A stretch of 64,000 nucleotides of DNA from NCBI GenBank assembly GCA_964457725.1, contig CAYWGQ010000002.1:45023-109022 (forward strand), read 5' to 3'. The position numbers and the translations under genes are program-made. Positions 14,031 to 49,387 of this stretch are shown here, in pieces (the first letter of the stretch is position 1; every line of letters begins with the position of its first letter). This stretch comes from an uncultured Gammaproteobacteria bacterium. Lineage in GTDB: Bacteria; Pseudomonadota; Gammaproteobacteria; Steroidobacterales; Rariloculaceae. The notes below the pieces were generated by a model that searched no databases, was not told where the DNA came from, and was given only the letters and a program-made list of their open reading frames with translations.

Positions 14031-14184
14031 CCCCCTGCGGCCGAGCGCGCTTCGGCTTTACAAGCCTTTCGGCGCTCTGCTATTAGCTCCGAAGAGTGAG
14101 GCGAAAGCGACCGCCGGGTCAAGCACGGCGATGCTCGGAAGGCGGAGCGGGGCTCCGCGGGGGAACCAAGGAACTCGTTCGTAT

Positions 14185-21951: not shown

Positions 21952-22020
21952 GTTTTGTCCGCGGGACGCCGACTTGCGCTCAGGGTCGGTAAAATGGGCG
22001 GGCCAACGGGGACGGAGCCT

Positions 22021-24429: not shown

Positions 24430-24488
24430 TTTGCTATATAGAGAGTGAGCCCGCGCGGAAGGCGACTCGAGCGGGAGGGGAGAGAGGC

Positions 24489-25772: not shown

Positions 25773-25776
25773 TTCG

Positions 25777-31839: not shown

Positions 31840-32691
31840 ATGGCGAAGTCGACGATAGCGCGCATCGTGGATGAACAGCGGAGCGACTTACTCGAGCGAT
31901 GGCTCGAGGTGCAGCAGTCCGCGCTGAAGGGGGCCGGGCTCGGAGAGAAACAGCGCAGAAAGGACGCGGAGGACTTTCTGCGGCCGTTCGCCGCCGCGCT
32001 CGGCAGCGGCAATGCCGACGTCAACTCGAGCGAGTGGAGCGAGATGCGGAACACGCTCGCCGACCTGTCGCGATCCCGTGCGAGGCTCGGCGCGACGCCG
32101 ACGGAGACGGCCTGGTTCGTCCTCTCGCTGAAGCAGCCGCTGTTCATGCTGCTCCAGCGCGAGCTGGCGGAGCCGACGCGCCTCGCCGAGGAGCTTTGGA
32201 CCTGCACGTCGCTGCTCGACGGCCTCGCTCTCTTCACGACCGAGGTGTTTCAGAAGAGCCGCGAGGACATGATCGCGCGGCAGCAACAGGAGCTGCTCGA
32301 GCTCTCGACGCCGGTCACGCGGCTCTGGGAAGGAATCCTCGCCGTGCCGCTGATCGGCACGCTCGACAGCGCGAGGACGCAGGTCGTCATGGAGTCCCTG
32401 CTGCAGGAGGTCGTGAACACGGGTGCATCGATCGCGGTCATGGACATCACCGGGGTGCCCGCGGTGGATACGCTGGTCGCACAGCATCTGCTGAAGACCG
32501 TTGCAGCGGCGAAGCTGATGGGCGCCGAATGCGTGATCAGCGGTATACGCCCGCAGATCGCGCAAACCGTCGTGCACCTCGGCGTCGACTTGGGCGACGT
32601 GGTGACGAAGGCGACACTCGCCGACGCGTTCCGCTACGCACTCGGCCGCGTGGGTTACCGGATCGTGCCGGCCGCGACGGGCGCTGCGTAG
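31840..32691 (+). CDS. RsbR-like stressosome sensor (N-terminal helical sensor domain plus STAS)
   Basis: 283 aa with RBS GGAGAAACC. The C-terminal STAS domain reads LAVPLIGTLDSART...AVMDITGVPAVDTLVAQHL...ISGIRPQIAQT. Confidence 0.8.
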   Translation: MAKSTIARIVDEQRSDLLERWLEVQQSALKGAGLGEKQRRKDAEDFLRPFAAALGSGNADVNSSEWSEMRNTLADLSRSRARLGATPTETAWFVLSLKQPLFMLLQRELAEPTRLAEELWTCTSLLDGLALFTTEVFQKSREDMIARQQQELLELSTPVTRLWEGILAVPLIGTLDSARTQVVMESLLQEVVNTGASIAVMDITGVPAVDTLVAQHLLKTVAAAKLMGAECVISGIRPQIAQTVVHLGVDLGDVVTKATLADAFRYALGRVGYRIVPAATGAA

Positions 32692-32696
32692 CCGCA

Positions 32697-33068
32697 ATGG
32701 AAAGAATCCCGATCCTTCGGCTCGGAACGACGCTCCTCGTGAGCATCCAGGTGGACTTGCACGATCGGATGGCGATGCAGCTGCAGCACGACCTCACCGA
32801 CCAGATCGTCAAGACCGGAGCGAAGGGCGTGCTGATCGACATCTCCGCCCTCGAGGTCGTCGATTCCTTCATCGGCCGTATGCTCGGCAACTTGACCGCC
32901 ATGTCGCGCGTGCTCGATGCCGACACGGTCGTCGTCGGCATGCGGCCCGCGGTAGCAATCACGCTCGTCGAGCTCGGACTCGAGCTCTCCGGCGTCAGGA
33001 CGGCCTTGAACGTCGAGCGCGGCATGCAGCTTCTCGGAGACTCGAAATTTGCGCGTACTCAAGGATGA
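32697..33068 (+). CDS. RsbS-like STAS-domain protein
   Basis: 123 aa. Contains IPILRLGTTLLVSIQ and LIDISALEVVDSFIG, with the conserved phosphorylatable Ser at position 57. Confidence 0.85.
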   Translation: MERIPILRLGTTLLVSIQVDLHDRMAMQLQHDLTDQIVKTGAKGVLIDISALEVVDSFIGRMLGNLTAMSRVLDADTVVVGMRPAVAITLVELGLELSGVRTALNVERGMQLLGDSKFARTQG

Positions 33069-33453
33069 GACGTATGAGCTCTCCGTCTCCGACGACATCG
33101 TTCGCGTGCGTCAAAGAGCCCGCGCATGGGCTGTCGAAATCGGCTTTTCGCTGGTGGACCAGACCAAGATCGTCACCGCGGCGAGCGAGCTCGCCCGTAA
33201 CACCGTCGAGCACGGTGGCGGCGGCACCGCGCGGTTTCGGCACGTCGTCGACGGCCACCGCAGCGGGCTGCGGCTCGATTTCGTGGACTCGGGACCGGGT
33301 ATCCCCGACGTGGAGCTTGCGCTGCGGGACGGCTATTCGACCGGGACGGGCCTCGGATTGGGGCTGTCGGGCTCGCGTCGGCTGATGAGCGAGTTCGAGA
33401 TCGAGTCGAGCGTGGGCACGGGCACCCGCGTGAGCGTCACGCGATGGAGATGA
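33049..33453 (+). CDS. RsbT-like serine kinase (HATPase_c switch kinase)
   Basis: 134 aa. Contains ASELARNTVEHGGGG and DSGPGIPDVELALRDGYSTGTGLGLGLSGSRRL. It overlaps rsbS by 20 nt. Confidence 0.85.
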   Translation: MRVLKDETYELSVSDDIVRVRQRARAWAVEIGFSLVDQTKIVTAASELARNTVEHGGGGTARFRHVVDGHRSGLRLDFVDSGPGIPDVELALRDGYSTGTGLGLGLSGSRRLMSEFEIESSVGTGTRVSVTRWR

Positions 33454-34463
33454 GCACCACGGCGATCCGCATCGGCGACCGGTCGAACGTTGCGGAGGTG
33501 CGGCGGGCGGCTCGGACGCACGCGGAACGGCTCGAGTGGCGCGAGGGCGACCGCGGCGATTGCGAGATCGTCGCGACCGAGCTGGCAACCAACATCGTCA
33601 AGCACGCGAGCGAGGGCGCCGTCGCCGTGACGAGCTGGGCGGAAGGCGACGCGGGCGTCGTGCTCGTCACCGCGATCGATCGCGGCCCCGGCATGAACGT
33701 CGAGCGTTGTCTCGAGGACGGCTACTCGACGGCTGGCTCGGCCGGCATCGGGCTCGGCGCGGTGCGGCGGCTTTCGAGCGCCGGCTTCGACTCGACCGAG
33801 GACGGCACCGTCATCGTCGCGGAGCTGCGGCATCCTACCGGAGCGGCCAGGAGGGCCGGGATCCTCGAGGTCGCGCGCGCGAGCCCGCCCCTCGAGGTCG
33901 GCGGCCTCGTGATGCCGATGGAGCGCGAGGCCGTCAGCGGCGATGCTTGGGCGTGCCGTCGCCGGGACGGGAGTCTCGCGGTGCTCGTCAGCGACGGCCT
34001 CGGACATGGACAGGCCGCGCACGAAGCGTCGATGCGTGCGATACGCGAGTTTTGCGAGGCCGCATGGCGCACGCCTCGCGAGGGCCTCGAAACCATTCAT
34101 CGCGTACTGCGCTCGACCCGCGGCGCGGCTTGTGCGCTTGCGCTGATCGAGCCCGAGCGCGCGATCGTACGATTCTGCGGAGTCGGCAACATCTCGGCGA
34201 GCCTCGTCGATGCCGACGAGACGCGCCACTTGGTGTCGCAGAACGGCATCCTCGGCGCGATGGTGCCGCGCCTGACCGAGTTCGAGTACCCGTGGTCCGG
34301 AACGGCGAGCCTCGTGCTGCACAGCGACGGGATCAACTCGCGCTGGCATCCGCGCCGCTGGCCCGGCCTATGGCGGCGGCATCCGGCGCTGATCGCAGCC
34401 GTGCTGTATCGCGACTGCGCGCGCGGGAACGACGACGTGGTTGCAGTGGTCGTGCACCCATGA
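33444..34463 (+). CDS. HATPase-like domain fused to PP2C/SpoIIE-type phosphatase (RsbX-like)
   Basis: 339 aa. The N-terminal half contains ATELATNIVKHA...DRGPGM...GYSTAGSAGIGLGAVRR. The C-terminal half contains SGDAW, VSDGLGHG and LHSDGI (PP2C metal ligands). Confidence 0.8.
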   Translation: MEMSTTAIRIGDRSNVAEVRRAARTHAERLEWREGDRGDCEIVATELATNIVKHASEGAVAVTSWAEGDAGVVLVTAIDRGPGMNVERCLEDGYSTAGSAGIGLGAVRRLSSAGFDSTEDGTVIVAELRHPTGAARRAGILEVARASPPLEVGGLVMPMEREAVSGDAWACRRRDGSLAVLVSDGLGHGQAAHEASMRAIREFCEAAWRTPREGLETIHRVLRSTRGAACALALIEPERAIVRFCGVGNISASLVDADETRHLVSQNGILGAMVPRLTEFEYPWSGTASLVLHSDGINSRWHPRRWPGLWRRHPALIAAVLYRDCARGNDDVVAVVVHP

Positions 34464-36550
34464 CGCCCCTCTTTCGCGCGTCGTTCGGCCCGGAGCCGGA
34501 CCTGATCGAGATTCGCCGGGTGACGCGCACGGTCACGCGCGTGCTCGGGTACGACTATCGCGATCAGATCAGGATTGCGACCGGCGTGTCCGAGCTCGTG
34601 CGCGCGGCGCTCGACACGGATCGCCGGGATGGCGGCTCGGTCGAGCTCGCCGTGATCGATGACACGGAGCCGCAGCTGTTCGCCGTGTCCGTTTCAGGCG
34701 CCGGGCTCGCAGCCGCCCCCGGGTCGAGCGCCTACGCGAGCGCGGCGGCCGCCGAGCGGCTGCTCGATCGTTTCGCACGGGCATCGGCCGACGAGCCGAC
34801 GACGTGGCGGGCGTGCCGCGCGCTGCCCGCCGACACACCGCGAATCACGCCTTCCCGCGTCGCCGTCATCCGTGCGCAGCTTGCGCCGGCGCCGCGCGAT
34901 CGCGACCGCGAGGAGCTCGAACGGCAGACTCGCGACCTCTCGGCGGCGTTGCTCGAGCTCGATGCAAAGCAGCAAGAGCTCGTTCGTCTGAACACCGAGC
35001 TCGCCGACACGAACCGCGGCGTCATGGCGCTCTACGCCGAGCTCGATGAGCGCGCGAATCACCTGCGCCGGGCGAACGAGCTGAAGTCGCGGTTTTTCTC
35101 CTACATCAGCCACGAGTTCCGCACTCCGTTGAGCTCGATCGTAGCCCTGTCCCGGTTGCTCCTCGGGCGCACGGACGGCGAGCTCAACGACGAGCAGGAC
35201 AGGCAGGTGCGGCTGATTCGCGACAGCGCGTCGGAGCTGCTCGATCTCGTCGGTAACCTGCTCGACCTCGCGAAGGCCGACGCCGGGAAGGTGGACGTCA
35301 CTGTCACGCGGTTCTCGCTCGTCGCGCTCTTCGGTGCGCTGCGCGGCATGATCCGGCCGCTGCTCGGAACGTCCTCCGTGCGCCTCGAGTTCGCTCCGGT
35401 CGAGCGCTTACCGCCGCTCATCACCGACGAGGGCAAGCTCGCGCAGATCCTGCGCAACTTTTTGTCGAATGCGGTCAAGTTCACCGAGCGGGGCGAGATC
35501 ACGGTGACCGCGGACGTAGTACCGGCGGGGACCGCGCCGGCACCCGGGCGCGATCTCGTGGCCGAGGAGAGCGTTCTCTTCTGCGTCTCCGATACCGGCA
35601 TCGGTATCCGTCCGGAGGACCAGGGGACGATCTTCGACGAGTTCTCGCAGGTGAGGCACGGCTTGCAGCGTCGAGTGCGCGGCACGGGTCTCGGCCTCTC
35701 GCTCTGCCGCAAGTTGGCGGCGCTCCTCGGCGGCGACGTGTGGATGACGAGCGCCGTCGGCCGCGGCTCGCAGTTCTACTGCCTCGTGCCTCGTGTGCAC
35801 CGGCGCGCGGAGGAAGAGGGCGGATGGTCGGCCGTGCACGGCGTTCCGCTGCTGCTCGTCGCGGGCGACACTGAACGCCTCGCGTTGCTCGAGAACGCGT
35901 TCGCGGACACTCCGTTCCACGTCGTGCCGGTCGTCTCCGGGGAGCTGACCGAGGAGCGAGTCGGCGCGATCGCTCCGGTCGGAGCCGTCGTCGATGCGCA
36001 CGAGGGCTGCTCGCCGGACGAGCTGCTGCTCCGCCGCTTGCAGGTCCCGATCCTCGCAGGACCGCTCCGCGGCGAGCCGGTGGATGCGCTCGTGCCTGCA
36101 ACGTATCGCGCAGCCGCGCCGGGCAGACCGGGGTGCGTGCTCGTCGTCGACGACGATCGCCGTTTCCTGACCGTGATCGAGCGGAGCCTGCACGGGCTGT
36201 GCGACGAGGTCGTCGCGACCGAGGATCCGCACGAGGCGCTCGCCGTCGCGGGGGACGGCCGGGCGGATTGCGCGATCCTCGATTTGCTGATGCCGAGCGT
36301 CGACGGCTTCGAGCTCCTCGCGAGACTGCGGGCGGGCTCGCAGACGGCGAAGATGCCGATCGTCATCTGCAGCTCCAAGGCGTTGACGCCGGAAGAGCGA
36401 ACGCTGCTGCACCGGCAGCACACGAGCTTCATCGCGAAGGACGAGCTCGTGCCGGAGCGGCTCGAGATCGCGCTGCTCGAGGCGCGCTTGAGCGCCGCCG
36501 CGCTCGAGCGTGTGCCGCTCGACGGCTCGCGGGGGGCGGAGGTGCGATGA
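34460..36550 (+). CDS. hybrid sensor histidine kinase / response regulator
   Basis: ATG at 34460 overlaps the preceding stop (ATGA). The H-box is SYISHEFRTPL, the N-box is NFLSNAVKFT, and the G-box is DTGIGI...GTGLGLSLC. The C-terminal receiver contains VLVVDDD...ILDLLMPSVDG. Confidence 0.85.
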   Translation: MTPLFRASFGPEPDLIEIRRVTRTVTRVLGYDYRDQIRIATGVSELVRAALDTDRRDGGSVELAVIDDTEPQLFAVSVSGAGLAAAPGSSAYASAAAAERLLDRFARASADEPTTWRACRALPADTPRITPSRVAVIRAQLAPAPRDRDREELERQTRDLSAALLELDAKQQELVRLNTELADTNRGVMALYAELDERANHLRRANELKSRFFSYISHEFRTPLSSIVALSRLLLGRTDGELNDEQDRQVRLIRDSASELLDLVGNLLDLAKADAGKVDVTVTRFSLVALFGALRGMIRPLLGTSSVRLEFAPVERLPPLITDEGKLAQILRNFLSNAVKFTERGEITVTADVVPAGTAPAPGRDLVAEESVLFCVSDTGIGIRPEDQGTIFDEFSQVRHGLQRRVRGTGLGLSLCRKLAALLGGDVWMTSAVGRGSQFYCLVPRVHRRAEEEGGWSAVHGVPLLLVAGDTERLALLENAFADTPFHVVPVVSGELTEERVGAIAPVGAVVDAHEGCSPDELLLRRLQVPILAGPLRGEPVDALVPATYRAAAPGRPGCVLVVDDDRRFLTVIERSLHGLCDEVVATEDPHEALAVAGDGRADCAILDLLMPSVDGFELLARLRAGSQTAKMPIVICSSKALTPEERTLLHRQHTSFIAKDELVPERLEIALLEARLSAAALERVPLDGSRGAEVR

Positions 36551-37686
36551 CCGGCAAATCGCTCGCACGCGGCCTCGTTCTCGTCGTCGACGATACGGCG
36601 GCGTCGCGTTACGTGAACGCGCGGACGCTTCGCTCGGCCGGTTTCGAGACGCTCGAGGCCGGCACCGGGGCCGAGGCGCTCGAGCTCGCGCGGCGGGAGC
36701 TGCCGGAGCTCGTGCTCCTCGACATCAAGCTGCCCGACTTCGACGGGTTCGAAGTCTGCCGTCGGCTGCGCGAGGACCCCGCGACTGCCTCGATGGCCAT
36801 CGTGCAAATCTCCGCGACCTTCGAGTCGGCCGAGTATCAGGTTCGCGGGCTCGAGGGCGGGGCCGACACGTTTCTGCTTTCGCCGGTCGAGCCGACAGTG
36901 CTCGTCGCGAACGTGCGCGCGATGCTGCGTCTCAGGCGGGCGGAGGGAGAGCTGCGCGAGTTCGACAAACGCAAGGACGAGTTTCTGGCAACCGTCGCGC
37001 ACGAGCTGCGCAACCCGCTCGCGCCGCTGCGCTACTGCCTGCACATGCTCGAGGGCTCGCGAGAGCCGCCGCTGCTCGAGCACTGCTTGCCGATCATGCG
37101 GCGGCAGACGGAGCATCTGGTCCGGCTCGTCGACGACCTCACCGACATGAGCCGGATCACACAGAACAAGCTTCGCCTGCGGCTCGAGCGGGTGGATCTC
37201 GCGCAAACCATCGGCGCGGCCATCGAGGCGCAGCGCCCGGAGATCGAGGCGAACGGGCTCGCGCTCGAGGTCGCGTTGCCGAGCGAGCGGCTCGAGGTGC
37301 GCGCCGATCCCGTACGGCTCGCGCAAGTGTTCGGCAACCTGCTCGCGAACGCGGTGAAATACACGCCCTCGGGCGGGCACGTACGGGTCGGTGCACGGCT
37401 CGAGTCGCCCGATCAGGTCGCCGTCATCGTGCAGGACGACGGACGTGGCATCGAGGCCGAGAGCCTCGAGCGCATCTTCGACCTATTCGTGCAAGTCGGC
37501 GACGGCGGCAAGGGGCTCGGTATCGGCCTCGCGCTCGTCGCGCGGCTCGTGTCGATGCACGGCGGGTCGGTCGAGGCGCACAGCGACGGCGTCGGGCGCG
37601 GCAGCACGTTCACGGTGCGCCTTCCGCTCGCTGCGCGGGCGAGCGCAAGCGCTCACGTCTCGAACATCCGCCACTCCGGCATGTAG
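36547..37686 (+). CDS. response-regulator receiver fused to histidine kinase
   Basis: ATG at 36547 overlaps the preceding stop. The receiver contains VLVVDDT...[11 protein letters not shown], the H-box is [11 protein letters not shown], and the ATPase contains [10 protein letters not shown]...DDGRGI...GLGIGLALV. Confidence 0.85.
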
Positions 37687-38687
37687 TTGAGCCCCAGCCT
37701 GACGATCCGCGCGATCAGCGCCTCGTAGTCGATACCGGCGGCGGCGGCGGACTCCGCGAGATCTTCGCCCATCGCGAGCTCCGGGTTCGCGTTCGCCTCG
37801 AGCACGAAGACACGCCCGTCCTCGCGGAGCCGCACGTCCATTCGCGCGAAGCCGCTCATGTAGAGCGCACGGTAGACGCGCTTCGCGAGCTTGGCGAGCC
37901 GCTGCTCGACGTCGGCGGGCAAGTCCGCCGCGCGGCCCGTCGTGATGCCGTGCTTCTCCCGATACTTGCGGTCCCATTTGACCTTGCGGGTCGCGATGCC
38001 GGTCTGCACCTTCGAGAGCGTGCCGAAGTCCATCTCCCATGCGGGCAGGGCCGTCAGCCGCGTGTTGCCGAGCACGCCGATATAGAGCTCGCGGCCGTCG
38101 ATGTACTCCTCGACCAGCGCGTCCGATTGCACGTGCTCGTGGATGAATTCGACGCGCTCTTTCAGGCTGCGCATGTCCTCGACGATCGAGGCCTGCGAGA
38201 TCCCGAGCGACGCCTCCTCGGTGGCCGACTTCACGATCAGCGGAAAGTCGAGCCGCTTCGGCTCGACGAATCGGCGTCCGTAGGGGAAGAGCCGGAAGGC
38301 GGGCGTCGCGATTCGATGCCACGCGAGCATCTGCTTCGTCAGCACCTTGTCGCGGGACATCATCATCCCGCGGGGATTGCAGCCGGTGTAAGGCTGGCGC
38401 ATGAGCTCGAGGTGTGCGACGACGTAGGAGTCGTACGACGCGATCCCCGAGAACTCGTTCAGCAGGTTGAACACGAGGTCCGGCCGCCACTCGGCGAGCG
38501 CTTCGGACAGCACGGAGAGCCGGTCGCCGAGCCCGAGCGGCCGCACGTCGTGGCCGAGGTCCGAAAGCGTCGTCAGCACGTCGTACTCGGTGCGGAACGG
38601 CTCGATTTCCTCGTCCGTCAGGGAGTCGGCGTTGTCCGGCGGCACGAGATCCTCGTGCACGAGCAGCAGTATCTTCAATCGCTTCAT
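37653..38687 (-). CDS. ATP-grasp enzyme, D-alanine--D-alanine ligase-like family
   Basis: 344 aa. Contains FPLIVKSATEEASLGIS, VEEYIDGRELYIGVLG and RMDVRL..DGRVFVLEANANP. Confidence 0.8.
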   Translation of the reverse strand: MKRLKILLLVHEDLVPPDNADSLTDEEIEPFRTEYDVLTTLSDLGHDVRPLGLGDRLSVLSEALAEWRPDLVFNLLNEFSGIASYDSYVVAHLELMRQPYTGCNPRGMMMSRDKVLTKQMLAWHRIATPAFRLFPYGRRFVEPKRLDFPLIVKSATEEASLGISQASIVEDMRSLKERVEFIHEHVQSDALVEEYIDGRELYIGVLGNTRLTALPAWEMDFGTLSKVQTGIATRKVKWDRKYREKHGITTGRAADLPADVEQRLAKLAKRVYRALYMSGFARMDVRLREDGRVFVLEANANPELAMGEDLAESAAAAGIDYEALIARIVRLGLNYMPEWRMFET

Positions 38688-39718
38688 CTGACGAAGTGCT
38701 CCCGATTCCGGCGCAGGAGATCACGAATCAAATCCGCGTGCAGTGCCGCGAGTCGCCGTTCCGCGCTCCGGCCCGTCGGCGGCGCGAGACCGAGCTCGTC
38801 CGCCCGCTGCGCCACGACGCGGAGCACGTGCTCGACGACGTAGGGATGGAAGCCCGCCTGGCGGAGCTGCCGGCGCAGCGCCGGTGCGTGCCCGGCGAGC
38901 GTCCGTTCGCCCCGTGCGCCGGCACGCGGACGGAGAAGTGCGCGAAGGGCCGCGTCCCAGCGCGACTCGACGTCCGCGTAGCGCCGTTGCTTGTGCCGGT
39001 AATGCGCGCGCAGCGTGCGGCGGTTCGTGTGCAGCGGCGCGATCGTCGTGCGGTCCCGGTTCCGAGGCGGGGTGCCTGCGATCTCGCTCATCAGCCGGTC
39101 GACGAGCTCGAGCTTCTCGAGCGCCGGCCAGCCGGCGTATTCCCGCCGCCAGCGCCGCTTCGGCCCGAGCCAGACGGCGAAGGTTTCCGCGAAGTCCTCG
39201 GTCGGGTGGCTTTGCGCGTACCACGAGGGCAGGTGCAGCACGTAGTCGCGGCTCGCCGGGCGGGCGACGTAGACGCGGGGGTAGGGCTGCGAGACGCGCC
39301 CGAACACGCGGCGGAAATCCGCACGCCGGCGCAGCCGGTACGCGGTGTCGAGCGCGTGCCCCGCCTCGTGCCGCAGGAGCTGCATGCGCCAGCGGCCGCT
39401 GCCGCCTTCGGCTTCGCCGATCAGTCGCCGCTCGAGGCGACAGAGGCGCGGCTGAGCCGCGAAGAACGGCACGGCGATGCCGGGCACGCCGTCCGGAGAG
39501 AACCACGAATCGCTGAGCCAGACGTGCGGGCGAAACGCGATGCCGCGGCGCGCGAGCTCGCCGTACAGGCGTTCGACGTCGGCCTCGACGGTGCTGCCGC
39601 GCACCCGCAACCCGAGGTCGCAGAGCCGCAGATCGAGCAGTGCCTCGTCGTCCCAGTCGGCCCAGCGGGGCGAGCGCTGGCCGGGCCGGCGGGCGGCGCT
39701 CGAATGAGAGTTCTTCAT
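38684..39718 (-). CDS. putative zinc metallopeptidase (HExxH)
   Basis: ATG at 39718 gives a 344 aa product. Contains LLRHEAGHALD (HExxH) plus a downstream HPTEDFAETFAVWL. Its stop overlaps the ATP-grasp start by 4 nt. Confidence 0.65.
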   Translation of the reverse strand: MKNSHSSAARRPGQRSPRWADWDDEALLDLRLCDLGLRVRGSTVEADVERLYGELARRGIAFRPHVWLSDSWFSPDGVPGIAVPFFAAQPRLCRLERRLIGEAEGGSGRWRMQLLRHEAGHALDTAYRLRRRADFRRVFGRVSQPYPRVYVARPASRDYVLHLPSWYAQSHPTEDFAETFAVWLGPKRRWRREYAGWPALEKLELVDRLMSEIAGTPPRNRDRTTIAPLHTNRRTLRAHYRHKQRRYADVESRWDAALRALLRPRAGARGERTLAGHAPALRRQLRQAGFHPYVVEHVLRVVAQRADELGLAPPTGRSAERRLAALHADLIRDLLRRNREHFVR

Positions 39719-39839: not shown

Positions 39840-40238
39840 ATGGGCAGACGCACTCAGGTCGCCGCAGCACTGGTTCTCGCGCTCGCAGGCGCATCCGCCG
39901 CCGCGCATCACTCGTTCACGGCCACTTACTTCGAGGACCGGACGATCGAGATCGAGGGGAAGCTGCTCCAGTTCATGTTCCGCAATCCGCACTCGTTCGT
40001 GCACGTCGAGGCGCCGGACGAGAACGGGCAGCCACAGCGCTGGGCCGTCGAGTGGGGCGGGGCCGGGCAGCTGTCGAGCCAGGGGGTCACGAACCAGACG
40101 CTGCGCCCCGGCGACATCGTGACGATCACCGGCAATCCGGGCCGCGATCCGAAAGATCATCGGATCCGCATGCTCTATCTGAAGCGCAATTCCGACGGCT
40201 TCGACTGGGGCCGGCGCCCCGGCGAGACCTTCAACTAG
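39840..40238 (+). CDS. AHHS small periplasmic protein (DUF6152-like)
   Basis: ATG at 39840 follows AAGGGGGGAG. The 132 aa product has a signal peptide ending SAAA, then HHSFTATYF, RNPHSFVHVE, WAVEWGG and GDIVTITG. Confidence 0.75.
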   Translation: MGRRTQVAAALVLALAGASAAAHHSFTATYFEDRTIEIEGKLLQFMFRNPHSFVHVEAPDENGQPQRWAVEWGGAGQLSSQGVTNQTLRPGDIVTITGNPGRDPKDHRIRMLYLKRNSDGFDWGRRPGETFN

Positions 40239-40247
40239 CGCTTCGCC

Positions 40248-41096
40248 GTGCGTGCGCTCCTTCTCGCCGCGTCGCTAGCGCTCGCGGCCGCGCCTGCAAC
40301 CGGGCAATTGAGCCTCGTCGGGGAGTGGGCGGGCCGCTACCACGAGGATCAGGCGGACCGCATCCCGGGCGACGTCCAGGGCGATTTCACCGGGGTGCCG
40401 CTGAACGACGCGGCGCGGCGCTACGCCGAGGCGTTCGACGTGACCCGCGTCGCCGTGCTCGAGCACCAGTGCCAGCCGTACAACGTCGCGCACATCTACC
40501 GGGGGCCGCTGCAGTTCCGGATCTGGGAAGAGAAGGATCCGGCGACGCAGGAGATCGTCGCCTACCGCCAGTATCTCGGCACTTACCAGCAGTGGCGCAC
40601 GATCTGGATGGACGGCCGCCCGCATCCGCCGGACTACGTCCCGCACACGTTCATGGGCTTCTCCACCGGCCGCTGGGACGGCGACATCCTCACCGTGCAC
40701 ACCACGCACATCAAGAAGGAGTTCTACCGGCGCAGCGGCATCCCGAGCAGCGACCAGACGACGATGGTCGAGCACTACATTCGCCACGGCGACCTGCTGT
40801 CGCACGTGATGATCATCACGGACCCGGTATATCTGACGGAGCCGTACGTGAACAGCCAGGAGTTCGTGCTGATGGAGCGCGGCAACCAGAACTGGCTCTA
40901 CAACTGCGAGTACGTGATGGAAGTGCCGATGCCGAAGCACGACGTGCCGCACTACCTGCCCGGTCAGAATCCGTTCATCGAGGATTTCGCGCAGAAGTTC
41001 GGGCTGCCGTTCGAGGCGGTGTTCGGCGGTGCGGAGACGCTCTATCCGGAGTATCAGCCGCGGCTCGAGGCGCTGATGAACGGCGGCGGACGATGA
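40248..41096 (+). CDS. secreted hypothetical protein, partner family
   Basis: A GTG start lies 9 nt after the 39840 gene stop. The 282 aa product has a signal peptide and contains VPLNDAARRYAEAFD, DGRPHPP, GFSTGRWDGDILTVHTT, MVEHY, ITDPVYLTEPY and the Cys pair HQC/YNC. Confidence 0.75.
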   Translation: MRALLLAASLALAAAPATGQLSLVGEWAGRYHEDQADRIPGDVQGDFTGVPLNDAARRYAEAFDVTRVAVLEHQCQPYNVAHIYRGPLQFRIWEEKDPATQEIVAYRQYLGTYQQWRTIWMDGRPHPPDYVPHTFMGFSTGRWDGDILTVHTTHIKKEFYRRSGIPSSDQTTMVEHYIRHGDLLSHVMIITDPVYLTEPYVNSQEFVLMERGNQNWLYNCEYVMEVPMPKHDVPHYLPGQNPFIEDFAQKFGLPFEAVFGGAETLYPEYQPRLEALMNGGGR

Positions 41097-42016
41097 CGCG
41101 CGCGACTCGGGTATCCGCCGCGGTCGCCGCGCTGCTCGCCGCGGTCGCGCTCGATGCGAACGCGCAGCGCGGCGGGATCGACACCTACCACGTGCAAGGC
41201 AACGTCTACATGCTGATCGGGGCGGACGCGAACGTCGCCGTCCAGATCGGCGAGGAAGGCATCCTCGTCGTCGACACGGGCGGCGCGGCGACGCGCGACG
41301 CCGTTCTCGCAGCGATCCGCACCCTGTCGGACAAGCCGATTCGCTGGATCGTGAACACCCACGCGGACGTCGACCACACCGGCGGCAACGAGACCATTTC
41401 CCAGGCGGGCATGACCGTCAACGGCAACCCTGCCGCGATCATCGCGCACGAGCGCGTGCTCACGCGGATGTCCGAGGAAGACCGGCCGATCACCGAGTGG
41501 CCGCTAAACACGTTCTTCGAGTCGCAGCGCGACTTCAGCTTCAACGGCGAGGCGATCTTCCTGTATCACGTGCCGGACGCGCACACGGACGGCGACGTGA
41601 TCGTGTACTTCCGCGGCTCCGACGTGCTCGTCGCGGGCGATCTCTTCGTCACGACCACGTATCCGGTGATCGATCGCGACTCGGGCGGCGGCGTGCAGGG
41701 TTTCATCGACGGGCTGAACCTGATGCTCGACATCGCGGTGCCGCGCTATCTCCAGGAAGGCGGGACGTACGTGATCCCCGGGCACGGGAGGCTCGGCGAC
41801 GAGGCGGACATCGTCGAGTATCGGGACATGGTCGTGATCATCCGCGATCGCGTCCGGGACATGATCGATCGCGGGATGACGCTCGAGCAGGTGCTCGCGG
41901 CGCGTCCGTCGCTCGACTACGACACGCGCTACGGCAGCGGTCGCGGCGAGTGGACGACGCGGATGTTCGTCGAGGCCGTGTACCGCGATCTGGCGGCGAA
42001 AGGAGGCAGTGAGTGA
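41093..42016 (+). CDS. MBL-fold metallo-hydrolase (secreted)
   Basis: ATG at 41093 overlaps the preceding stop. Has a signal peptide. Contains NTHADVDHTGGN at the HxHxDH position, HTDGDVIVYF and IPGHG. It is a paralog of 21025..21951. Confidence 0.8.
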   Translation: MTRATRVSAAVAALLAAVALDANAQRGGIDTYHVQGNVYMLIGADANVAVQIGEEGILVVDTGGAATRDAVLAAIRTLSDKPIRWIVNTHADVDHTGGNETISQAGMTVNGNPAAIIAHERVLTRMSEEDRPITEWPLNTFFESQRDFSFNGEAIFLYHVPDAHTDGDVIVYFRGSDVLVAGDLFVTTTYPVIDRDSGGGVQGFIDGLNLMLDIAVPRYLQEGGTYVIPGHGRLGDEADIVEYRDMVVIIRDRVRDMIDRGMTLEQVLAARPSLDYDTRYGSGRGEWTTRMFVEAVYRDLAAKGGSE

Positions 42017-42870
42017 GCGTCCGGAAGATCGCGGCCAGCGGCCGCCTCGCGGCCGGGATCGGCGCGGCGGTGCTCGCCTCGGCCGCGTTCGCGCAGAACG
42101 AGAGTGCGCAAGAGGCCGCGCGGATCGACCTGACGGGCTACTGGGTTTCCGTCGTCAGCGAGGACTGGCGCCACCGGATGGCGACGCCGCGCCGCGGCGA
42201 TTACGAGAGCGTGCCGCTGAACGACGAAGGCCGTCGCGTCGCCGATCAATGGGATCTCGAGCGCGACAACGCGGCGGGCCTCGAGTGCAAGGCGTTCGGC
42301 GTCGGCGGCTTGATGCGGCAGCCCGGCCGGTTGCGCATCGAGTGGGACGACCCGAATACGCTCCGGATCGATTTCGACGCCGGCACGCAGACGCGGCTGC
42401 TGCACTTCGATCCCGGCGTCGCGCCGCCCGCGGAGAAGACGTGGCAAGGGCATTCCGTCGCCGAATGGGTCGGGCCCCCGCGGCCGCGCGGCCAAGCGCC
42501 GGTCCGCGCGCAGATCGGCAACAGCGCCGGGCCGATCGCGCCGGGCGGCGGCGGGCGAGGGCAGCGCGGCGGGCCGCCGCCGCCGGCCTCGGTCAACGAG
42601 GGCGGCGCGCTGAAGGTCGTTACGACCGGCTTCCGCGAAGGCTACCTGCGGAAGAACGGCGTGCCGTACAGCGAATCCGCCGTGATCACGGAGTATTTCC
42701 ATCGGCTGCCGCAGCATCCGAACGGCGACACGTGGCTGCACGTCGTCACGATCGTCGAGGACCCGCTATACCTGAACGAGCCCTTTTACACGAGCACGCA
42801 TTTCAAGCTCGAGCCGAGCGGCGCACGGTGGAATCCGACTCCGTGCCGTACCGCGCCGCCGCCGCCGTAA
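42013..42870 (+). CDS. secreted hypothetical protein, divergent partner-family member with Gly/Pro-rich insert
   Basis: A GTG at 42013 (RBS AGGAGG) overlaps the MBL stop. Contains LTGYWVSVVSEDW, VPLNDEGRRVADQWD, LKVVTTGF, ITEYF and VEDPLYLNEPFY. It carries an insert, PGGGGRGQRGGPPPP. Confidence 0.7.
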   Translation: MSVRKIAASGRLAAGIGAAVLASAAFAQNESAQEAARIDLTGYWVSVVSEDWRHRMATPRRGDYESVPLNDEGRRVADQWDLERDNAAGLECKAFGVGGLMRQPGRLRIEWDDPNTLRIDFDAGTQTRLLHFDPGVAPPAEKTWQGHSVAEWVGPPRPRGQAPVRAQIGNSAGPIAPGGGGRGQRGGPPPPASVNEGGALKVVTTGFREGYLRKNGVPYSESAVITEYFHRLPQHPNGDTWLHVVTIVEDPLYLNEPFYTSTHFKLEPSGARWNPTPCRTAPPPP

Positions 42871-42921: not shown

Positions 42922-45342
42922 TCAGCGGGGTGCGAACGGGGCGCGAACCGCTTCGCGAAGCCGCTCGAGGCGCACCGGCGATCCGGTGAACAGGGTTTCG
43001 GGCAGCGCCGGCGGGCGCGGCGCGAGCGCCGCGAAGATCTCGGCGGCCTCATAGCGGTTCAGCCCTTCGCCGGCGAGGTACTGGAGGCGCAAGTTGCGGT
43101 CCTGGTTCAGTGCCGCACCCCGGAGCACGGGCCCGAGCTCGGACGGGCCGGCCGCGTACGTCCCGAGCAGCGCGGTCGCCGATTCGAAGCCGACCTCCCG
43201 GAGCGACCGGGCGACCTCGGCGTAGCGCACGCTCTGCAGCAGCCGCTCGAGCCGGTCGACGTCGAGCGCTTCGCCGCCGGCCCGGCCGAGCAGCACGGCG
43301 TCGTAGCCCGCGCCGTGCACGCGATTCGCGAACAGCGCGCCGTCCGGAAAGACCTCGAAGAACGTCGCGAGCTCGCTCCGCACGGCTTCCTCGGTCGTCT
43401 CGTAGAGCTGCACGAACACGGTCACCGCGCCGCCCGGCCGGAGCCGCGAGCGCACCAGCCGCCAGAACTCGACCGTGTAGAGCGCGGCCGCCCCCTTCAC
43501 CCACGGATCGAGCGGATCGGAGGTGATCACGTCGAACGTCTCGCGCGACGTCTCGAGCAGGTGGCGGCCGTCGTCGATCACGATCCGCACTTTCGGATTC
43601 GCCGTCACGTCGAAGCTCTCGGCCGCGAAGTGCGGCGCGACGCCCCGTACCACGAGCGGCTCGAGCTCCGCGACGACGACCTGCTCGACCGCTGGATCGA
43701 TCGCGACGGCGCCCGCCGTGACGCCCGCGCCGAGCCCGATCACGAGGGCCGAGCGCGGCTCCTCGGCCGCGAGTGTCGCGAGGTGACCGAGCATCCGTTG
43801 CAGCCGCATGTCCTGCGGGTAGCTCGACGCCTGCGCCTTCCCGGCGCTGTGGAAGCTGCGCCGGCCGTCGGCGTCTTCCGTCACTGCGACGGAGGCGCTT
43901 CTGCCTTCGCCTGCGAACAGCACGCGTACGCCCTCGGCGCGCGTCGGCAGGAAGCGCCCGTAGGCGATCAGCTCGCCGGGAACGGCCGGCACGGCCGCCG
44001 CGAACGCGGCCGCTACGGCAACGGCGCCGGCGGCGAGCGCGACGCGCCGCCGCGGCGGCTCGGCTCGGTAGCCGGGCCGTGCGAGCAGCATGGCGCCAGC
44101 CGCGGCGGCGGCTGCGATCATCAGCTGCTGCGTGAGCTGGCTGCCGGCGAGCGCGACGAGCACGAATCCGGCGGCGAGCGCACCCGCGATCGCGCCGAGC
44201 GTGTTCGCGGCGTACACGTGCCCGGTCAGCCGCGCCGGATCGCCGCCCGGTGCGGCTGCCGCGGCGATCGCGAGCGGCACGCTCGCGCCCCAAGCCACCG
44301 CGGCGGGCAGCACGGCGAACGCGATCCGCATCAGATCGATCGGCAGCGCCGCGGCCGCGACCGCCGGTAGCGTCGGATCGATCGGCCAGTAGGGCAGGAG
44401 GCGCGCGATCGCGAATGCGGCCCACGCGATCGCCGCGCACGCGAGCAGCTGACAGACGCCGAGCGCTGCACCCGGGTCGAACCGCCGGCCGCACGCGGCG
44501 CCGAGCGCGGCGCCCGCGCCGAGGCCCGCGAGGACGACGGCGAGGATCAGCGCGAACGTGTAGACCGTGCCGCCGAGGAGCAGCGACAGTTGCCGCGTCC
44601 AGACGACCTCGGCCGCGAGCGCGGTCATGCCCGAGAGCGCGATCGCGACGTAGAGCGTCCCGCGCTGCGCCGTATGGCGCTCGGCCCGAGCGACGGCAGC
44701 CGCGGCTCGCGTCGGCGCAGTCGCCTGCCGCCGGCTCGATCGGCCGAGCGCGAACGCGGCCACGGCCGCTCCGCCGTTGAGCGCGGCAGCGGCGAGCGTC
44801 GCGACGGTCGTGTCGTAGACGCGCAGCAGATGGAAGCCCGCGACGATGCAGCCGAGCACGCCGCCGACGAGGTTCGCGGCGTAGAGCGCGCCGAGACCGG
44901 CCGCGCCGCGCGGCGTCGTGTCGAGCACTCGGCCGAGCGCGGGCAGCGTCGCGCCCATCAGCACGGTAGGCGGCAGCAGGCACAGTGCGGCGAGGACGGC
45001 GCGCGCGGCGAGGCCGCCGTTACCGCCCCAAGCCGCATAGGCGCTCGCGAGCGCCGGCAGCCCGAGCAGCACCGCCAGGCCTGCGAGACCGGTCGCGATC
45101 TCGAGCGTCGCGTAGACGCGGAGCGGATCGAGCCGCGCGGGCAAGACGCGCCAGCACGCGAGGCTCCCGATGCAGAGGCCCCCCATGAACGTCGCGAGCA
45201 GCACCCCGAGCGACGGCGCGGACGCGCCGATCACGAGCGCGAGGAGCTGGAACCAGACGAGCTGATAGACGAGCGCCGCCGCGCCGCTCGCGAGCGCGAG
45301 CGCCGCAAGCGCCGGCGCGGATGGAGGCTGGGCGTTCGTCAT
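42922..45342 (-). CDS. fused polytopic-membrane / spermidine synthase-like protein
   Basis: ATG at 45342 (alternative start 45360). About 480 aa of hydrophobic repeats are followed by LVIGLGAGVTAG...FDVITSDPLDPW...GGAVTVFVQ (aminopropyltransferase fold). The track ORF extension to 46413 is rejected. Confidence 0.8.
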   Translation of the reverse strand: MTNAQPPSAPALAALALASGAAALVYQLVWFQLLALVIGASAPSLGVLLATFMGGLCIGSLACWRVLPARLDPLRVYATLEIATGLAGLAVLLGLPALASAYAAWGGNGGLAARAVLAALCLLPPTVLMGATLPALGRVLDTTPRGAAGLGALYAANLVGGVLGCIVAGFHLLRVYDTTVATLAAAALNGGAAVAAFALGRSSRRQATAPTRAAAAVARAERHTAQRGTLYVAIALSGMTALAAEVVWTRQLSLLLGGTVYTFALILAVVLAGLGAGAALGAACGRRFDPGAALGVCQLLACAAIAWAAFAIARLLPYWPIDPTLPAVAAAALPIDLMRIAFAVLPAAVAWGASVPLAIAAAAAPGGDPARLTGHVYAANTLGAIAGALAAGFVLVALAGSQLTQQLMIAAAAAAGAMLLARPGYRAEPPRRRVALAAGAVAVAAAFAAAVPAVPGELIAYGRFLPTRAEGVRVLFAGEGRSASVAVTEDADGRRSFHSAGKAQASSYPQDMRLQRMLGHLATLAAEEPRSALVIGLGAGVTAGAVAIDPAVEQVVVAELEPLVVRGVAPHFAAESFDVTANPKVRIVIDDGRHLLETSRETFDVITSDPLDPWVKGAAALYTVEFWRLVRSRLRPGGAVTVFVQLYETTEEAVRSELATFFEVFPDGALFANRVHGAGYDAVLLGRAGGEALDVDRLERLLQSVRYAEVARSLREVGFESATALLGTYAAGPSELGPVLRGAALNQDRNLRLQYLAGEGLNRYEAAEIFAALAPRPPALPETLFTGSPVRLERLREAVRAPFAPR

Positions 45343-45471
45343 GGAAGGTCGCGCGAGCATAGGCGAAAGGTTCGGGCCGGGGCTAGCAGGCGGACCGGGT
45401 CCCGCCGACGCGGGCAATGCGTGGCACCGAAGTTGCAACGACGTCGCCCCCGGGACGAAGCGGAGCGAGCG

Positions 45472-46556: not shown

Positions 46557-47690
46557 ATGGCGAAAGCTGCACTACCGGCAGGCGCGCTCGCGGCCGCCGC
46601 TCTGATGGTTTGCTCCACGGCGGGCTTCGCGCAGGCGCCGCGGGCCGACGGCGCGGCCGAGCCGCCGCAATCGCGCCGCGTCCCCGCGGAGACCCTCGCA
46701 GCGAAGGTCCGCGACCCTTCCTGGCGTGCCCCGCGAACCTCGTGGGGGCATCCGAGCTTCGAGGGCGTCTGGAGCACGGACGACATGCGGAGCGTGCCGC
46801 TGAATCGACCGGAGGAGCTCGGCGACAACGCGAGCCTGACGCCCGAGCAGTTCGCCGAGCGCGCGCGGCGCGACGAAGGCGCGCTCGATCGGGCCGTGAA
46901 CACCGAGACGTTTCTCAGGAACGAGTGGGGCGTGCGCACGTTCGGCTACAGCTCGCTCGTGATCGATCCGCCGAACGGCCGCATCCCGCCGATGACCGAG
47001 GCCGGCCGGGCGCGAGCGGCGAACCGCGACCGCGGGACGTTCGGCCCGGGTCCGTTCGACACGTTCGAGGATTTCACGCTCTACGACCGCTGCATCACGC
47101 GCGGGGTCATCGGCTCGAAGCTGCCGGTGATCTACGGCAACGGCCTGCGAATCGTGCAGACGCCGGACTCCGTCGCGATCAGCTACGAGATGATCCACGA
47201 CACACGGATCATCCCCGTCGACGGGCGGCCGCACATGAGCGGCGACATTCGGCAGTACCTCGGGAACCCGCGCGGTCGCTGGGAGGGCGATACGCTCGTC
47301 GTCGAGACCGTGAATTTTACCGATCAGACGAGCATCGGCCCGAACGGCAACGGCACCCGGCACAGTGCGCAGATGAAGCTGACCGAGCGCTTCACGCGCA
47401 TCGATCCGGAGATGATCGAATACGTCGCGACCGTCGACGACCCCGTCGCCTACACGGCGCCTTTCACGTTGCGGCTCATGCTCACGACGCAGCCCGGCTA
47501 TCAGCTCTACGAGTACTCCTGCCACGAGGGCAACGGCGCGGTGAAGAATTCGCTCTCCGGCGAGCGAGCGTGGGAGCGCGAGGCGGCCGAAGCGGCCGCG
47601 AAGGGCCTGCCGCCGCCGCAAAGGGCCGGGAGCGTCTATGGCCCGCCCGAGGAGGGCGCCGAGGTGTTCAACATCAACCGGGGCGAGTGA
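46557..47690 (+). CDS. secreted hypothetical protein, partner family
   Basis: ATG at 46557 follows GAGGAG. The 377 aa product has a signal peptide. Contains FEGVWS, DRCITRG, DGRPHM, GRWEGDTLVVETVNF, LTERF, VDDPVAYTAPF and YSCHEGN. Confidence 0.75.
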   Translation: MAKAALPAGALAAAALMVCSTAGFAQAPRADGAAEPPQSRRVPAETLAAKVRDPSWRAPRTSWGHPSFEGVWSTDDMRSVPLNRPEELGDNASLTPEQFAERARRDEGALDRAVNTETFLRNEWGVRTFGYSSLVIDPPNGRIPPMTEAGRARAANRDRGTFGPGPFDTFEDFTLYDRCITRGVIGSKLPVIYGNGLRIVQTPDSVAISYEMIHDTRIIPVDGRPHMSGDIRQYLGNPRGRWEGDTLVVETVNFTDQTSIGPNGNGTRHSAQMKLTERFTRIDPEMIEYVATVDDPVAYTAPFTLRLMLTTQPGYQLYEYSCHEGNGAVKNSLSGERAWEREAAEAAAKGLPPPQRAGSVYGPPEEGAEVFNINRGE

Positions 47691-47724
47691 CGCCGCGCGA
47701 GGCGGTCGACCGTCCACAAAAACG

Positions 47725-47760
47725 AAGGCCGCGGCGCCGTCGGTGCCGCGGCCTTTTTCG
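47725..47760. terminator. bidirectional rho-independent terminator
   Basis: The element is AAGGCCGCGGC-gccgtcggt-GCCGCGGCCTT followed by TTTCG, preceded by ACAAAAAC. It has a 9-bp GC stem with A/T tracts on both sides and lies between convergent genes ending at 47690 and 47804. Confidence 0.65.
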
Positions 47761-47803
47761 TCGGCGCGGGCGGGTGCGGGAAGGCCGCAGTCCGCCCGGT
47801 ACG

Positions 47804-48217
47804 TCACTCCGCGCTCGGGGCTCCTGCGCCCTCCGAGCCCATGAACAGGCTCGATCCGTCCGGCAGCCGGATCTCCCGGCCGTTGGCCCGGAACGAGCGA
47901 TCACGGGCCTGGTAGCCCTCGACGGTCACTCGAATGCCGGCCGGCACCGAGTTGCGGTTCCAGCCGCGGCGAATCAGCGCGTTCGGCGCGCCGCCCTCGA
48001 CCGCCCACTGTTGCTTCTCGCCGCTCTCGGTCGTCACTTCGATGTGCAGCCAGGAGTGCGGGTTGCTGAACTCCATTCGCGTGACGACGCCCTCGAGCAC
48101 GATCGGCCGGTTGATGTCGAACTCGGCGGCGAACGAATGATGCGCGTCGACCGGAGCGGCTGCCCATCCTGCGGCGGCGGCCGCGACGGCGCTCAGGATT
48201 TTCACTCGCATGGACAC
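47804..48217 (-). CDS. AHHS small periplasmic protein (DUF6152-like)
   Basis: 137 aa. The signal peptide ends PVDA and is followed by HHSFAAEFD, SNPHSWLHIE, WAVEGG and GIRVTVEG. Confidence 0.75.
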   Translation of the reverse strand: MSMRVKILSAVAAAAAGWAAAPVDAHHSFAAEFDINRPIVLEGVVTRMEFSNPHSWLHIEVTTESGEKQQWAVEGGAPNALIRRGWNRNSVPAGIRVTVEGYQARDRSFRANGREIRLPDGSSLFMGSEGAGAPSAE

Positions 48218-48306
48218 ATCTCCCGTGTGGTACGACGGCCGGAGACCATTCTAGTGGCCCGCGGCTGAACGGCGTCTGAATTATTGTACAGCGGCCTCGC
48301 TTCGGC

Positions 48307-49122: not shown

Positions 49123-49387
49123 CTCCCGATCCCCCTCGACACCGTATACGTCGTCGGCTTGAACGCGGGCCGGCGGCCTCGCCGGCACGGCCGGAATTCT
49201 ACGTGCGCCCGGAGCCCGAGCACCATCTTTTCGGAGTCGACGCGAGGCGCGCCGCGTTCTTCGAAGCTCTTCTATGTGAACTCCTTCGTCGTGTCAAACG
49301 CCGCTTCGCTCGAGCAGACGCGGCCCGTGATTTCGTTTAGCCTTGAGAAACGCCGGTGCAGGCCGGCACTCCGGGGGGAGGACTCAG

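Follow-up and report, generated by a model that had tools for sequence, protein, structure and literature searches.

Four genes of the DUF6152 family (PF19649), here termed A, B, C and D, lie in a 64,000-nucleotide stretch of DNA from an uncultured Gammaproteobacteria bacterium (contig CAYWGQ010000002.1), which is referred to as the window. Each gene encodes a secreted protein predicted to begin, upon removal of its signal peptide, with two histidines. We propose that DUF6152 is the metal-binding subunit, with an oligonucleotide/oligosaccharide-binding (OB) fold, of a two-protein periplasmic accessory module, a reading to which we assign a probability of about one half. Three invariant histidines and a conserved Glu/Trp pair at one corner of the domain, the zero spacing between the predicted cleavage site and the His-His motif, the N-terminal place of DUF6152 in fusion proteins and the precedent of the copper protein YcnI altogether make a metal site the best explanation of what was found.

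A predicted N-terminal His-His motif in four DUF6152 proteins

All four proteins score above the Pfam gathering threshold of PF19649 (27 bits), and scanning all open reading frames (ORFs) of the window with the family hidden Markov model (HMM) revealed exactly these four copies (Table 1). Their relatives in RefSeq are labelled "DUF6152 family protein". For genes A to D, no NCBIfam model matched, and no Pfam family besides PF19649 passed its gathering cut-off. The start codon of gene C agrees with the public gene call; a Shine-Dalgarno sequence GGGGGAG lies upstream, and the GC content at third codon positions is 0.86. The initial annotation of the window had cited four ORFs with Ala/His-His-Ser junctions, all of which exist, D being on the minus strand. 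Its wording of four small proteins holds for B, C and D, but not for A, a fusion in which the DUF6152 domain (residues ~1 to 150) is followed by ~190 residues with homology to the proteins encoded next to B, C and D.

The N-terminus of the gene C product reads MGRRTQVAAALVLALAGASAAA / HHSF, corresponding to a Sec-type signal peptide followed by the predicted mature protein. In each of the four precursors, a positively charged n-region and a hydrophobic core precede the junction, which is LASA/HHS in A, TAGA/HHS in B, SAAA/HHS in C and PVDA/HHS in D. The predicted cleavage motif is as initially noted, with Ala at position -1 and Ala or Val at position -3 in all four. Export via the Tat pathway was also considered and rejected, for an Arg-Arg pair is found only in C among the four and is missing from the C orthologues.

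As A to D are paralogues, their agreement on His-His counts as one observation rather than four, and the motif has to be tested in the wider family. Searching a profile against 1.84 billion cluster representatives (50%-identity clusters) yielded 14,544 representatives that match DUF6152 at E <= 1e-3. The best 150 of them, which share less than 50% identity with each other and are not biased for the two histidines, were read closely. Every one that covers the N-terminus has HH, at about position 22 to 24. The motif continues as HHS in 125 and as HHT in one, whereas the remaining 24 are mostly HHA, with one HHP, the others being truncated or frameshifted fragments.

A signal-peptide logo was built from the 140 representatives that have at least 12 residues before HH. 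It shows Ala at -1 in 133 sequences, a variable residue at -2, Ala, Val or Leu at -3, an enrichment of Pro at -4 and hydrophobic Leu, Ala or Val at -10 to -8; downstream of the cleavage site it reads H, H, S/A, F, x, A, x, Y/F. The spacing between the predicted cleavage site and HH is zero in 140/140. Judged by its residues, the c-region before HH is of the textbook signal-peptidase I type, which strongly predicts a mature protein that starts with His and thereby has a free α-amine.

Only three columns are invariant in a 132-sequence alignment of the domain, namely H1, H2 and H29 in mature numbering, and no Met is found among its invariant or near-invariant columns. A larger HMM alignment of 250 sequences is biased for H1 and H2, as 96 of its members were retrieved by the pattern AHHSFAA; here H1 and H2 are each conserved in 245/245. 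The same alignment has H29 in 250/250, Ala at -1 in 238/244 (98%), G18 in 247/249, P28 in 247/250, N27 in 242/250, E49 in 242/250 (97%) and W46 in 232/250 (93%). Residue H29 belongs to a loop motif Asn-Pro-His, which had initially been assigned to three of the four proteins. The motif of B indeed differs (NAAH), but none of the four lacks the third His, that of B being aligned to the others.

The OB-fold and the coevolution of its N-terminal segment

The mature protein of gene C was modelled by AlphaFold2 with 132 diverse sequences, at a predicted local distance difference test (pLDDT) score of 95.1 and a predicted template modelling (pTM) score of 0.87. The model confidently assigns a five-stranded OB-fold topology to the mature domain, with strands at residues 14-24, 31-37, 43-49, 71-79 and 86-94 and a helix (residues 53-57) between β3 and β4. 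Structural similarity search using Foldseek revealed generic OB domains as the best PDB matches, including those of LysRS (anticodon-binding), SSB and ExoVII, with TM-scores of ~0.5-0.57 and E-values of ~2e-4; a sequence search of the PDB with DUF6152 found no relative. As modelled, this OB-fold is unlike any known histidine-brace scaffold.

Coevolution was analysed by mean-field direct coupling analysis (361 sequences, effective number 194). The couplings recover the β2-β3 pairs E35-R45, D38-Q44, H33-A47 and P37-P43, in support of a register that pairs residue 31 with 49, in addition to the pairs E17-I71 (β1-β4), L20-V32 (β1-β2), G76-I87 (β4-β5) and V48-M89 (β3-β5). The N-terminal segment gives the couplings F4-A53 (rank 5), A6-N27 (rank 20), F4-G69 (rank 21) and T5-G51 (rank 31), a signal that is partly confounded by subfamily structure, and P28 is coupled to E49 (rank 36). 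As residues 4 to 6 couple to N27, G51 and A53, and P28 couples to E49, this indirect evidence suggests that H1 and H2, which precede F4 by three and two residues, are placed beside H29 and E49. Couplings between invariant columns (H1/H2-H29 and H1/H2-G18) were discarded as pseudocount artefacts.

A partner family linked and fused to DUF6152

Six homologous domains of a secreted partner family are found in the window: pB, pC, pC2, pD, pD2 and the C-terminus of A. The family is uncatalogued, with no Pfam match in 106 diverse members, no NCBIfam match and no sequence relative in the PDB; a profile search with the partner mostly returned the same close orthologues. One Cys, one Gly, one Glu and one Asp are invariant, and a second Cys, an Arg, a Trp and a Pro are near-invariant, in the consensus ...W.G.S.G.WEGDTLVVET...ERF...DP...P...C. 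No His, Met or Tyr is invariant in the family alignment.

The linkage was examined in 80 genome loci from Gammaproteobacteria metagenome-assembled genomes, Vicinamibacterales, Bryobacterales and sphingomonads, which were gathered with a narrow D-type alignment and are thus biased to the AHHSFAA subtype. A partner lies at most 400 nt away from 84 of the 96 DUF6152 genes (88%). It is upstream on the same strand in 59 cases, downstream on the same strand in 14 and on the opposite strand in five, whereas the remaining six share one reading frame with DUF6152, five of them as true fusions. The true fusions always have DUF6152 first (gene A, P0232, L026, L054, L009, L049 and L078). Two further candidates, P0356 and L048, were rejected as read-through artefacts, each with an internal signal peptide.

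Periplasmic enzymes and other genes around the modules

The C operon is ordered as C, pC, a secreted protein of metallo-beta-lactamase (MBL) fold and pC2, an order that is also found in a 446-kb JGI contig (L001). True fusions of partner and MBL-fold protein exist in other genomes (e.g. P0399), in which the two are joined by a Pro-rich linker. In the MBL-fold protein encoded next to pC, which also matches the ODP family weakly, the metal motif is non-canonical (H-A-D-V-D-H), and the fused proteins elsewhere carry D-A-D-A-D-H. These motif variants suggest an unusual metal site.

The enzyme most often encoded next to D-type modules is a pyrroloquinoline quinone (PQQ)-dependent dehydrogenase, represented by 27 genes in 22 of the 80 loci. 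Operons that run from PQQ dehydrogenase through partner to DUF6152 occur in at least eight loci, often with a second, divergent partner gene, and the D module of the window has the same parts (PQQ dehydrogenase, pD2, D and pD). The recurring set consists of one periplasmic enzyme (PQQ dehydrogenase or MBL-fold protein), two partner paralogues and one DUF6152, as seen at 46557-51115 of the window and in L010, L017, L022, L042, L045, L065, L075 and L080. No CXXCH cytochrome gene is found near the PQQ-linked DUF6152 loci. Other immediate neighbours encode serine beta-lactamase-type hydrolases, flavin mononucleotide (FMN) dehydrogenases, GSDH proteins, SGL lactonases, esterases, TonB-type outer-membrane proteins and Lipocalin_5 proteins. 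The initial annotation had argued for a metal- or redox-related role from the neighbouring redox enzymes; this argument holds, but the truly conserved neighbour is the partner protein, which had not been tied to the site.

Several further genes adjoin the four modules. A TauD/TfdA-type dioxygenase and a flavin amine oxidase precede gene A by a gap of 13 nt, and the three probably form one operon. The stretch upstream of pB and B contains a second MBL-fold gene, an 811-residue DUF1592/1588/1585/1587/1595 protein with a cytochrome c domain, a DUF1552 (HXXSHH) protein, which is the usual mate of the DUF1592-type protein, and a 537-residue ankyrin-repeat protein; a GDSL lipase gene comes after B. 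Divergent from C are genes for an ATP-grasp protein (D-Ala-D-Ala ligase C-terminal type) and a putative zinc peptidase (Peptidase_Mx), the latter of which is also adjacent in contig L083. An 812-residue protein with a spermine/spermidine-synthase domain is convergent with the C operon and kept in L001 (11079-13607). The window also has a stressosome-like cluster composed of an RsbR-type protein (RsbRD_N and STAS), an RsbS-type STAS protein, an RsbT-type kinase, a phosphatase with HATPase and SpoIIE domains, and two hybrid histidine kinase/response regulators.

In sphingomonads and one Vicinamibacterales contig, DUF6152 is adjoined by pairs of small membrane proteins of the DUF6644 family (L065 895-1527, L069 3845-4904, L080 897-1400, L084 3328-4303 and L072), which show weak similarity to DUF2214 and have conserved His in their transmembrane helices. 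None is encoded in the window, and DUF6644 was rejected as a part of the system of this window.

Table 1. Positions of the DUF6152 genes, their partners and neighbouring genes in the window
Feature	Positions	Strand	Evidence or remark
Gene A, 343 aa, natural fusion of N-terminal DUF6152 and partner domain	16351-17382	+	PF19649, 45.8 bits, E = 7e-12
Partner domain of fusion A	~16699-17379	+	partner HMM E = 4.7e-33; blastp vs pC 7e-12
Gene B, DUF6152, 166 aa, TAGA/HHSY subtype	28884-29384	+	PF19649, 38.8 bits, E = 1e-9; third His in PNAAH
pB, partner protein, 439 aa, directly upstream of B	27501-28820	+	partner HMM E = 8e-43
Gene C, DUF6152 precursor, 132 aa	39840-40238	+	PF19649, 77.3 bits, E = 1e-21
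Gene C, predicted signal peptide	39840-39905	+	mature protein predicted from 39906
Gene C, codons cat cac, His23-His24 (mature H1-H2)	39906-39911	+	245/245 conserved each
Gene C, codons Asn49-Pro50-His51 (mature N27-P28-H29), β1-β2 loop	39984-39992	+	between strands 14-24 and 31-37
Gene C, codons Trp68-Ala-Val-Glu71 (mature W46...E49), end of β3	40041-40052	+	250-sequence conservation
pC, partner protein, 282 aa, secreted	40248-41096	+	starts 10 nt after C; homologous to pB, pD, pD2 and C-terminus of A
Secreted MBL-fold protein	41093-42016	+	PF00753, E = 1.5e-20; overlaps pC by 4 nt
pC2, second, divergent partner protein, closes C operon	42013-42870	+	partner HMM E = 8.7e-18; no Pfam match
pD, partner protein, 377 aa, convergent with D	46557-47690	+	partner HMM E = 2e-113
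Gene D, DUF6152, 137 aa, PVDA/HHSFAAEFD subtype	47804-48217	-	PF19649, 113.6 bits, E = 5e-33
pD2, partner protein, directly upstream of D	48307-49188	-	partner HMM E = 8e-110
PQQ-dependent dehydrogenase, divergent from pD2-D	49388-51115	+	PF01011, E = 1.7e-60
TauD/TfdA-type dioxygenase and flavin amine oxidase	13918-16337	+	upstream of A
Second MBL-fold, DUF1592-type, DUF1552 and ankyrin-repeat genes	21049-27390	+	upstream of pB-B
Stressosome-like cluster	31840-37686	+	
ATP-grasp protein and Peptidase_Mx	37653-39718	-	divergent from C
Spermine/spermidine-synthase-domain protein	42922-45360	-	convergent with C operon
NlpE N-terminal domain protein	52181-52912	-	~4 kb from module D

The proposed metal site and its alternatives

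In the mechanism that we propose, each DUF6152 protein would be exported by the Sec pathway and cut by signal peptidase I after the conserved Ala, leaving a mature domain that begins with His-His-Ser. The N-terminal segment would then fold back on the corner of the barrel made up of the β1-β2 loop (Asn-Pro-His) and the end of β3 (Trp...Glu). At this corner, H1, H2, H29 and probably E49 would make one mononuclear metal site, to which H1 contributes its α-amine and imidazole and H29 its imidazole, with H2 and/or E49 as further ligands. DUF6152 would act together with the partner, a putative disulfide-containing β-barrel, the two being one chain in gene A. The resulting module might serve as an accessory to the adjacent periplasmic enzyme, namely the PQQ dehydrogenase in the D type and the MBL-fold protein in the C type, with electron transfer or the handling of a small ligand or a metal as its plausible task.

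Following the motif definition of the histidine brace (PMC10952591), a closed Cu(II) site could arise from an N-terminal His, a distal His and a carboxylate (PMC10952591, PMC8424229). Candidates for the His whose imidazole would complete the T-shaped N3 site of a brace are H29 and H2. Copper in a histidine-brace-like geometry is most likely among the candidate sites; that the metal is copper, and that the α-amine is one of its ligands, are both less certain than the metal-binding module as such. The initial annotation had suggested a metal site at the N-terminal His. The in silico evidence backs a functional site on the mature N-terminus, but the copper-trafficking genes that might go along with it are not found nearby.

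Several observations weigh against the proposed site and module. Gene C, alone among the four, has three further AxA-type sites 1 to 4 residues upstream (after A18, A20 and A21), at which the signal peptide might be cut instead, and the first two residues of the mature C model are the only ones predicted at low confidence. The pC model, which rests on a shallow alignment, is of moderate confidence, with a core of ~9 strands at pLDDT 85-95 and 70.8 overall. Its best PDB matches in Foldseek, CRBP1 and FABP4, are weak (E = 2e-3, target-normalised TM-score of 0.58), and the partner is weakly predicted to be a calycin-like β-barrel, a fold of 8-10 antiparallel strands around a ligand cavity. In addition, neither the 131 immediate neighbours nor the main clusters of neighbouring genes include a copper-homeostasis family, and four copies within 32 kb, each with its own partner, fit poorly to a housekeeping metallochaperone. 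Moreover, tandem DUF6152-DUF6152 proteins (P0124, P0140, P0153, P0164, P0171 and P0173) keep HHSY in 4/6 of their internal second domains though it is not N-terminal there, and three of these four have lost the equivalent of H29. Accordingly, HH can be selected without a free α-amine and without H29, which weakens the case for an absolute need for the free α-amine.

The internal second domains of the tandem proteins resemble the type of gene B in the window (HHSY...YD). As to copper trafficking, this role was considered but is not supported, since the gene context without copper-homeostasis families and the many paralogous modules per genome count against it. A gene for a protein with the N-terminal domain of NlpE, a family tied to copper and envelope stress, lies near module D, with no link to the module established.

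A centre formed by the side chains only, consisting of three His and one carboxylate around Zn, Fe(II), Ni or Mn, would account for the HHSY motif of internal domains that lack a free N-terminus. In such a structural or catalytic centre, the α-amine would be no ligand, and the N-terminal position would reflect packing. The conservation of all of H1, H2, H29 and E49, the gene context without copper genes and the metal-dependent enzymes nearby (the MBL-fold protein and the TauD-type dioxygenase) are consistent with it as well. Nevertheless, HH follows the predicted cleavage site at zero spacing in 140/140, Ala at -1 is 95-98% conserved and DUF6152 always comes first in fusions. Zero spacing and first place in fusions would be difficult to account for were the terminus irrelevant in itself, and we regard this centre as unlikely.

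Type I quinoproteins normally need a cytochrome, as in the ExaA/ExaB and MxaF/MxaG systems. The operons of PQQ dehydrogenase, partner and DUF6152 without a CXXCH cytochrome gene nearby raise the idea that HH and H29 ligate an organic cofactor (b-type haem or quinone) at the partner interface, making the module a cytochrome-like acceptor for PQQ dehydrogenases. The resemblance of the partner core to ligand-binding calycins and the recurrence of Lipocalin_5 proteins nearby point in the same direction. However, the calycin match is weak, none of the residues kept throughout the partner family (a Cys pair, Gly, Glu and Asp) is a His, Met or Tyr, and many modules stand beside hydrolases rather than dehydrogenases, all of which makes a bound cofactor quite improbable.

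We give equally little credence to a domain free of metal and cofactor, whose histidines serve partner docking, pH-dependent switching or general acid/base chemistry. This would agree with the persistence of HH in internal domains that lost H29, and the metal site is, after all, a prediction; yet a small secreted domain whose only invariant residues, three His, cluster with Glu/Trp at a single corner bears a classic metal-site signature, for which YcnI provides a precedent. Least credible is that His-His at the N-terminus reaches into a metal site belonging to the adjacent enzyme or the partner, making DUF6152 a TIMP-like regulator or a metal-insertion chaperone for MBL or PQQ enzymes. In its favour, an OB-fold with a functional N-terminus is known from TIMP N-domains, the combination of one enzyme with two partners and a single DUF6152 is found repeatedly, and the invariant Glu and Asp of the partner could share a metal. 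However, the H29/E49 corner coevolves with the N-terminal segment of the same domain, which argues for an intramolecular site, and the adjacent enzymes vary too much to be the targets of one specific inhibitor.

Implications of a putative metal site in DUF6152

We found no mention of DUF6152, PF19649 or DUF6644 in the literature searched, and the N-terminal His-His/His signature, an OB-fold as the scaffold of such a site, the uncatalogued partner family and the link to PQQ dehydrogenases appear undescribed. To our knowledge, all known N-terminal-histidine copper sites, including those of LPMOs, pMMO, CopC, PmoF, X325 and YcnI, are on β-sandwich or cupredoxin-like folds. If DUF6152 binds a metal as predicted, the OB-fold would be added to these scaffolds, along with a family of over 14,000 sequence clusters that stem from soil Gammaproteobacteria, Acidobacteriota and sphingomonads, and an obligate partner family described in no database. 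It would also give a first functional handle on two large families of "hypothetical proteins", and suggest a connection to quinoprotein metabolism in the periplasm that can be put to the test. Such work is made tractable by cultured hosts, namely Altererythrobacter fulvus KACC 19119, Sphingomonas sp. MMS24-J13, Novosphingobium humi and Croceibacterium atlanticum.

Going beyond the proposed module, DUF6152 and its partner might constitute a new and very widespread class of periplasmic copper redox module, with a histidine-brace-type centre on an OB-fold. The module would replace a c-type cytochrome as the direct electron acceptor of PQQ or GSDH-type dehydrogenases, and possibly oxidise a small hydrophobic substrate in the partner barrel. 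We consider this extension speculative and improbable; if true, it would be a soluble bacterial counterpart of the pairing between PQQ dehydrogenases and lytic polysaccharide monooxygenases (LPMOs).

Comparison with known systems

CusF is a periplasmic OB-fold metallochaperone of Cu(I)/Ag(I), which has a Met2-His site and a Trp cation-π contact in the middle of its sequence. DUF6152 is likewise a small periplasmic OB-fold with conserved His and Trp on the barrel, but it has no conserved Met, no CusCBA context and no match to the CusF Pfam family, and its putative site is on the N-terminus. The N-domain of tissue inhibitors of metalloproteinases (TIMPs) is also an OB-fold, in which the amine and carbonyl of residue 1 chelate the zinc of the protease. 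The two share a processed N-terminus as the functional element, predicted as such in DUF6152. Unlike DUF6152, TIMPs are eukaryotic, begin with a Cys1 amid disulfides and inhibit the metal site of another protein without having a site of their own.

Similar to LPMOs (AA9-AA17), DUF6152 has a predicted N-terminal His after the signal peptide, and its genes are linked to PQQ and GSDH-type dehydrogenases; a PQQ-dependent pyranose dehydrogenase (AA12) is known to drive LPMO action (PMC5960967). Compared to the Ig/FnIII-like β-sandwich and flat substrate surface of LPMOs, DUF6152 is an OB-fold of 110 residues, and no LPMO Pfam match or carbohydrate-binding module was found in genes A to D. Periplasmic copper proteins of the CopC/PmoF1 type, in which the protein adds a fourth ligand to a canonical histidine brace, resemble DUF6152 as small periplasmic β-proteins with an N-terminal His, predicted as such in DUF6152, a distal His and a carboxylate. 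However, DUF6152 differs from CopC in its fold and in a context that lacks CopD or copper-resistance genes, and an adjacent second His is no hallmark of CopC.

YcnI (DUF1775) offers a precedent in kind: in this domain of unknown function, with a conserved predicted N-terminal His, Glu and Trp, the path from sequence to a proposed metal site was the same, and a mono-histidine brace for Cu(II) was indeed found (PMC8424229). Like YcnI, DUF6152 is secreted, with a predicted His at residue 1 after the signal peptide and conserved Glu and Trp nearby. They differ in fold and ligands, with a cupredoxin-like fold and one His in YcnI compared to an OB-fold and three invariant His in DUF6152. They also differ in context, in that YcnI adjoins CopC, CopD and PCuAC, whereas DUF6152 adjoins the uncatalogued partner and catabolic periplasmic enzymes. 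Neither CopC (PF04234) nor DUF1775 gave a Pfam match among genes A to D. The initial annotation was right to caution that the likeness to these proteins is analogy and not homology, as the OB-fold is not that of LPMOs, CopC or YcnI. By both fold and HMM, DUF6152 stands outside the LPMO, CopC, YcnI and CusF families; by analogy, it may nonetheless work like one of them.

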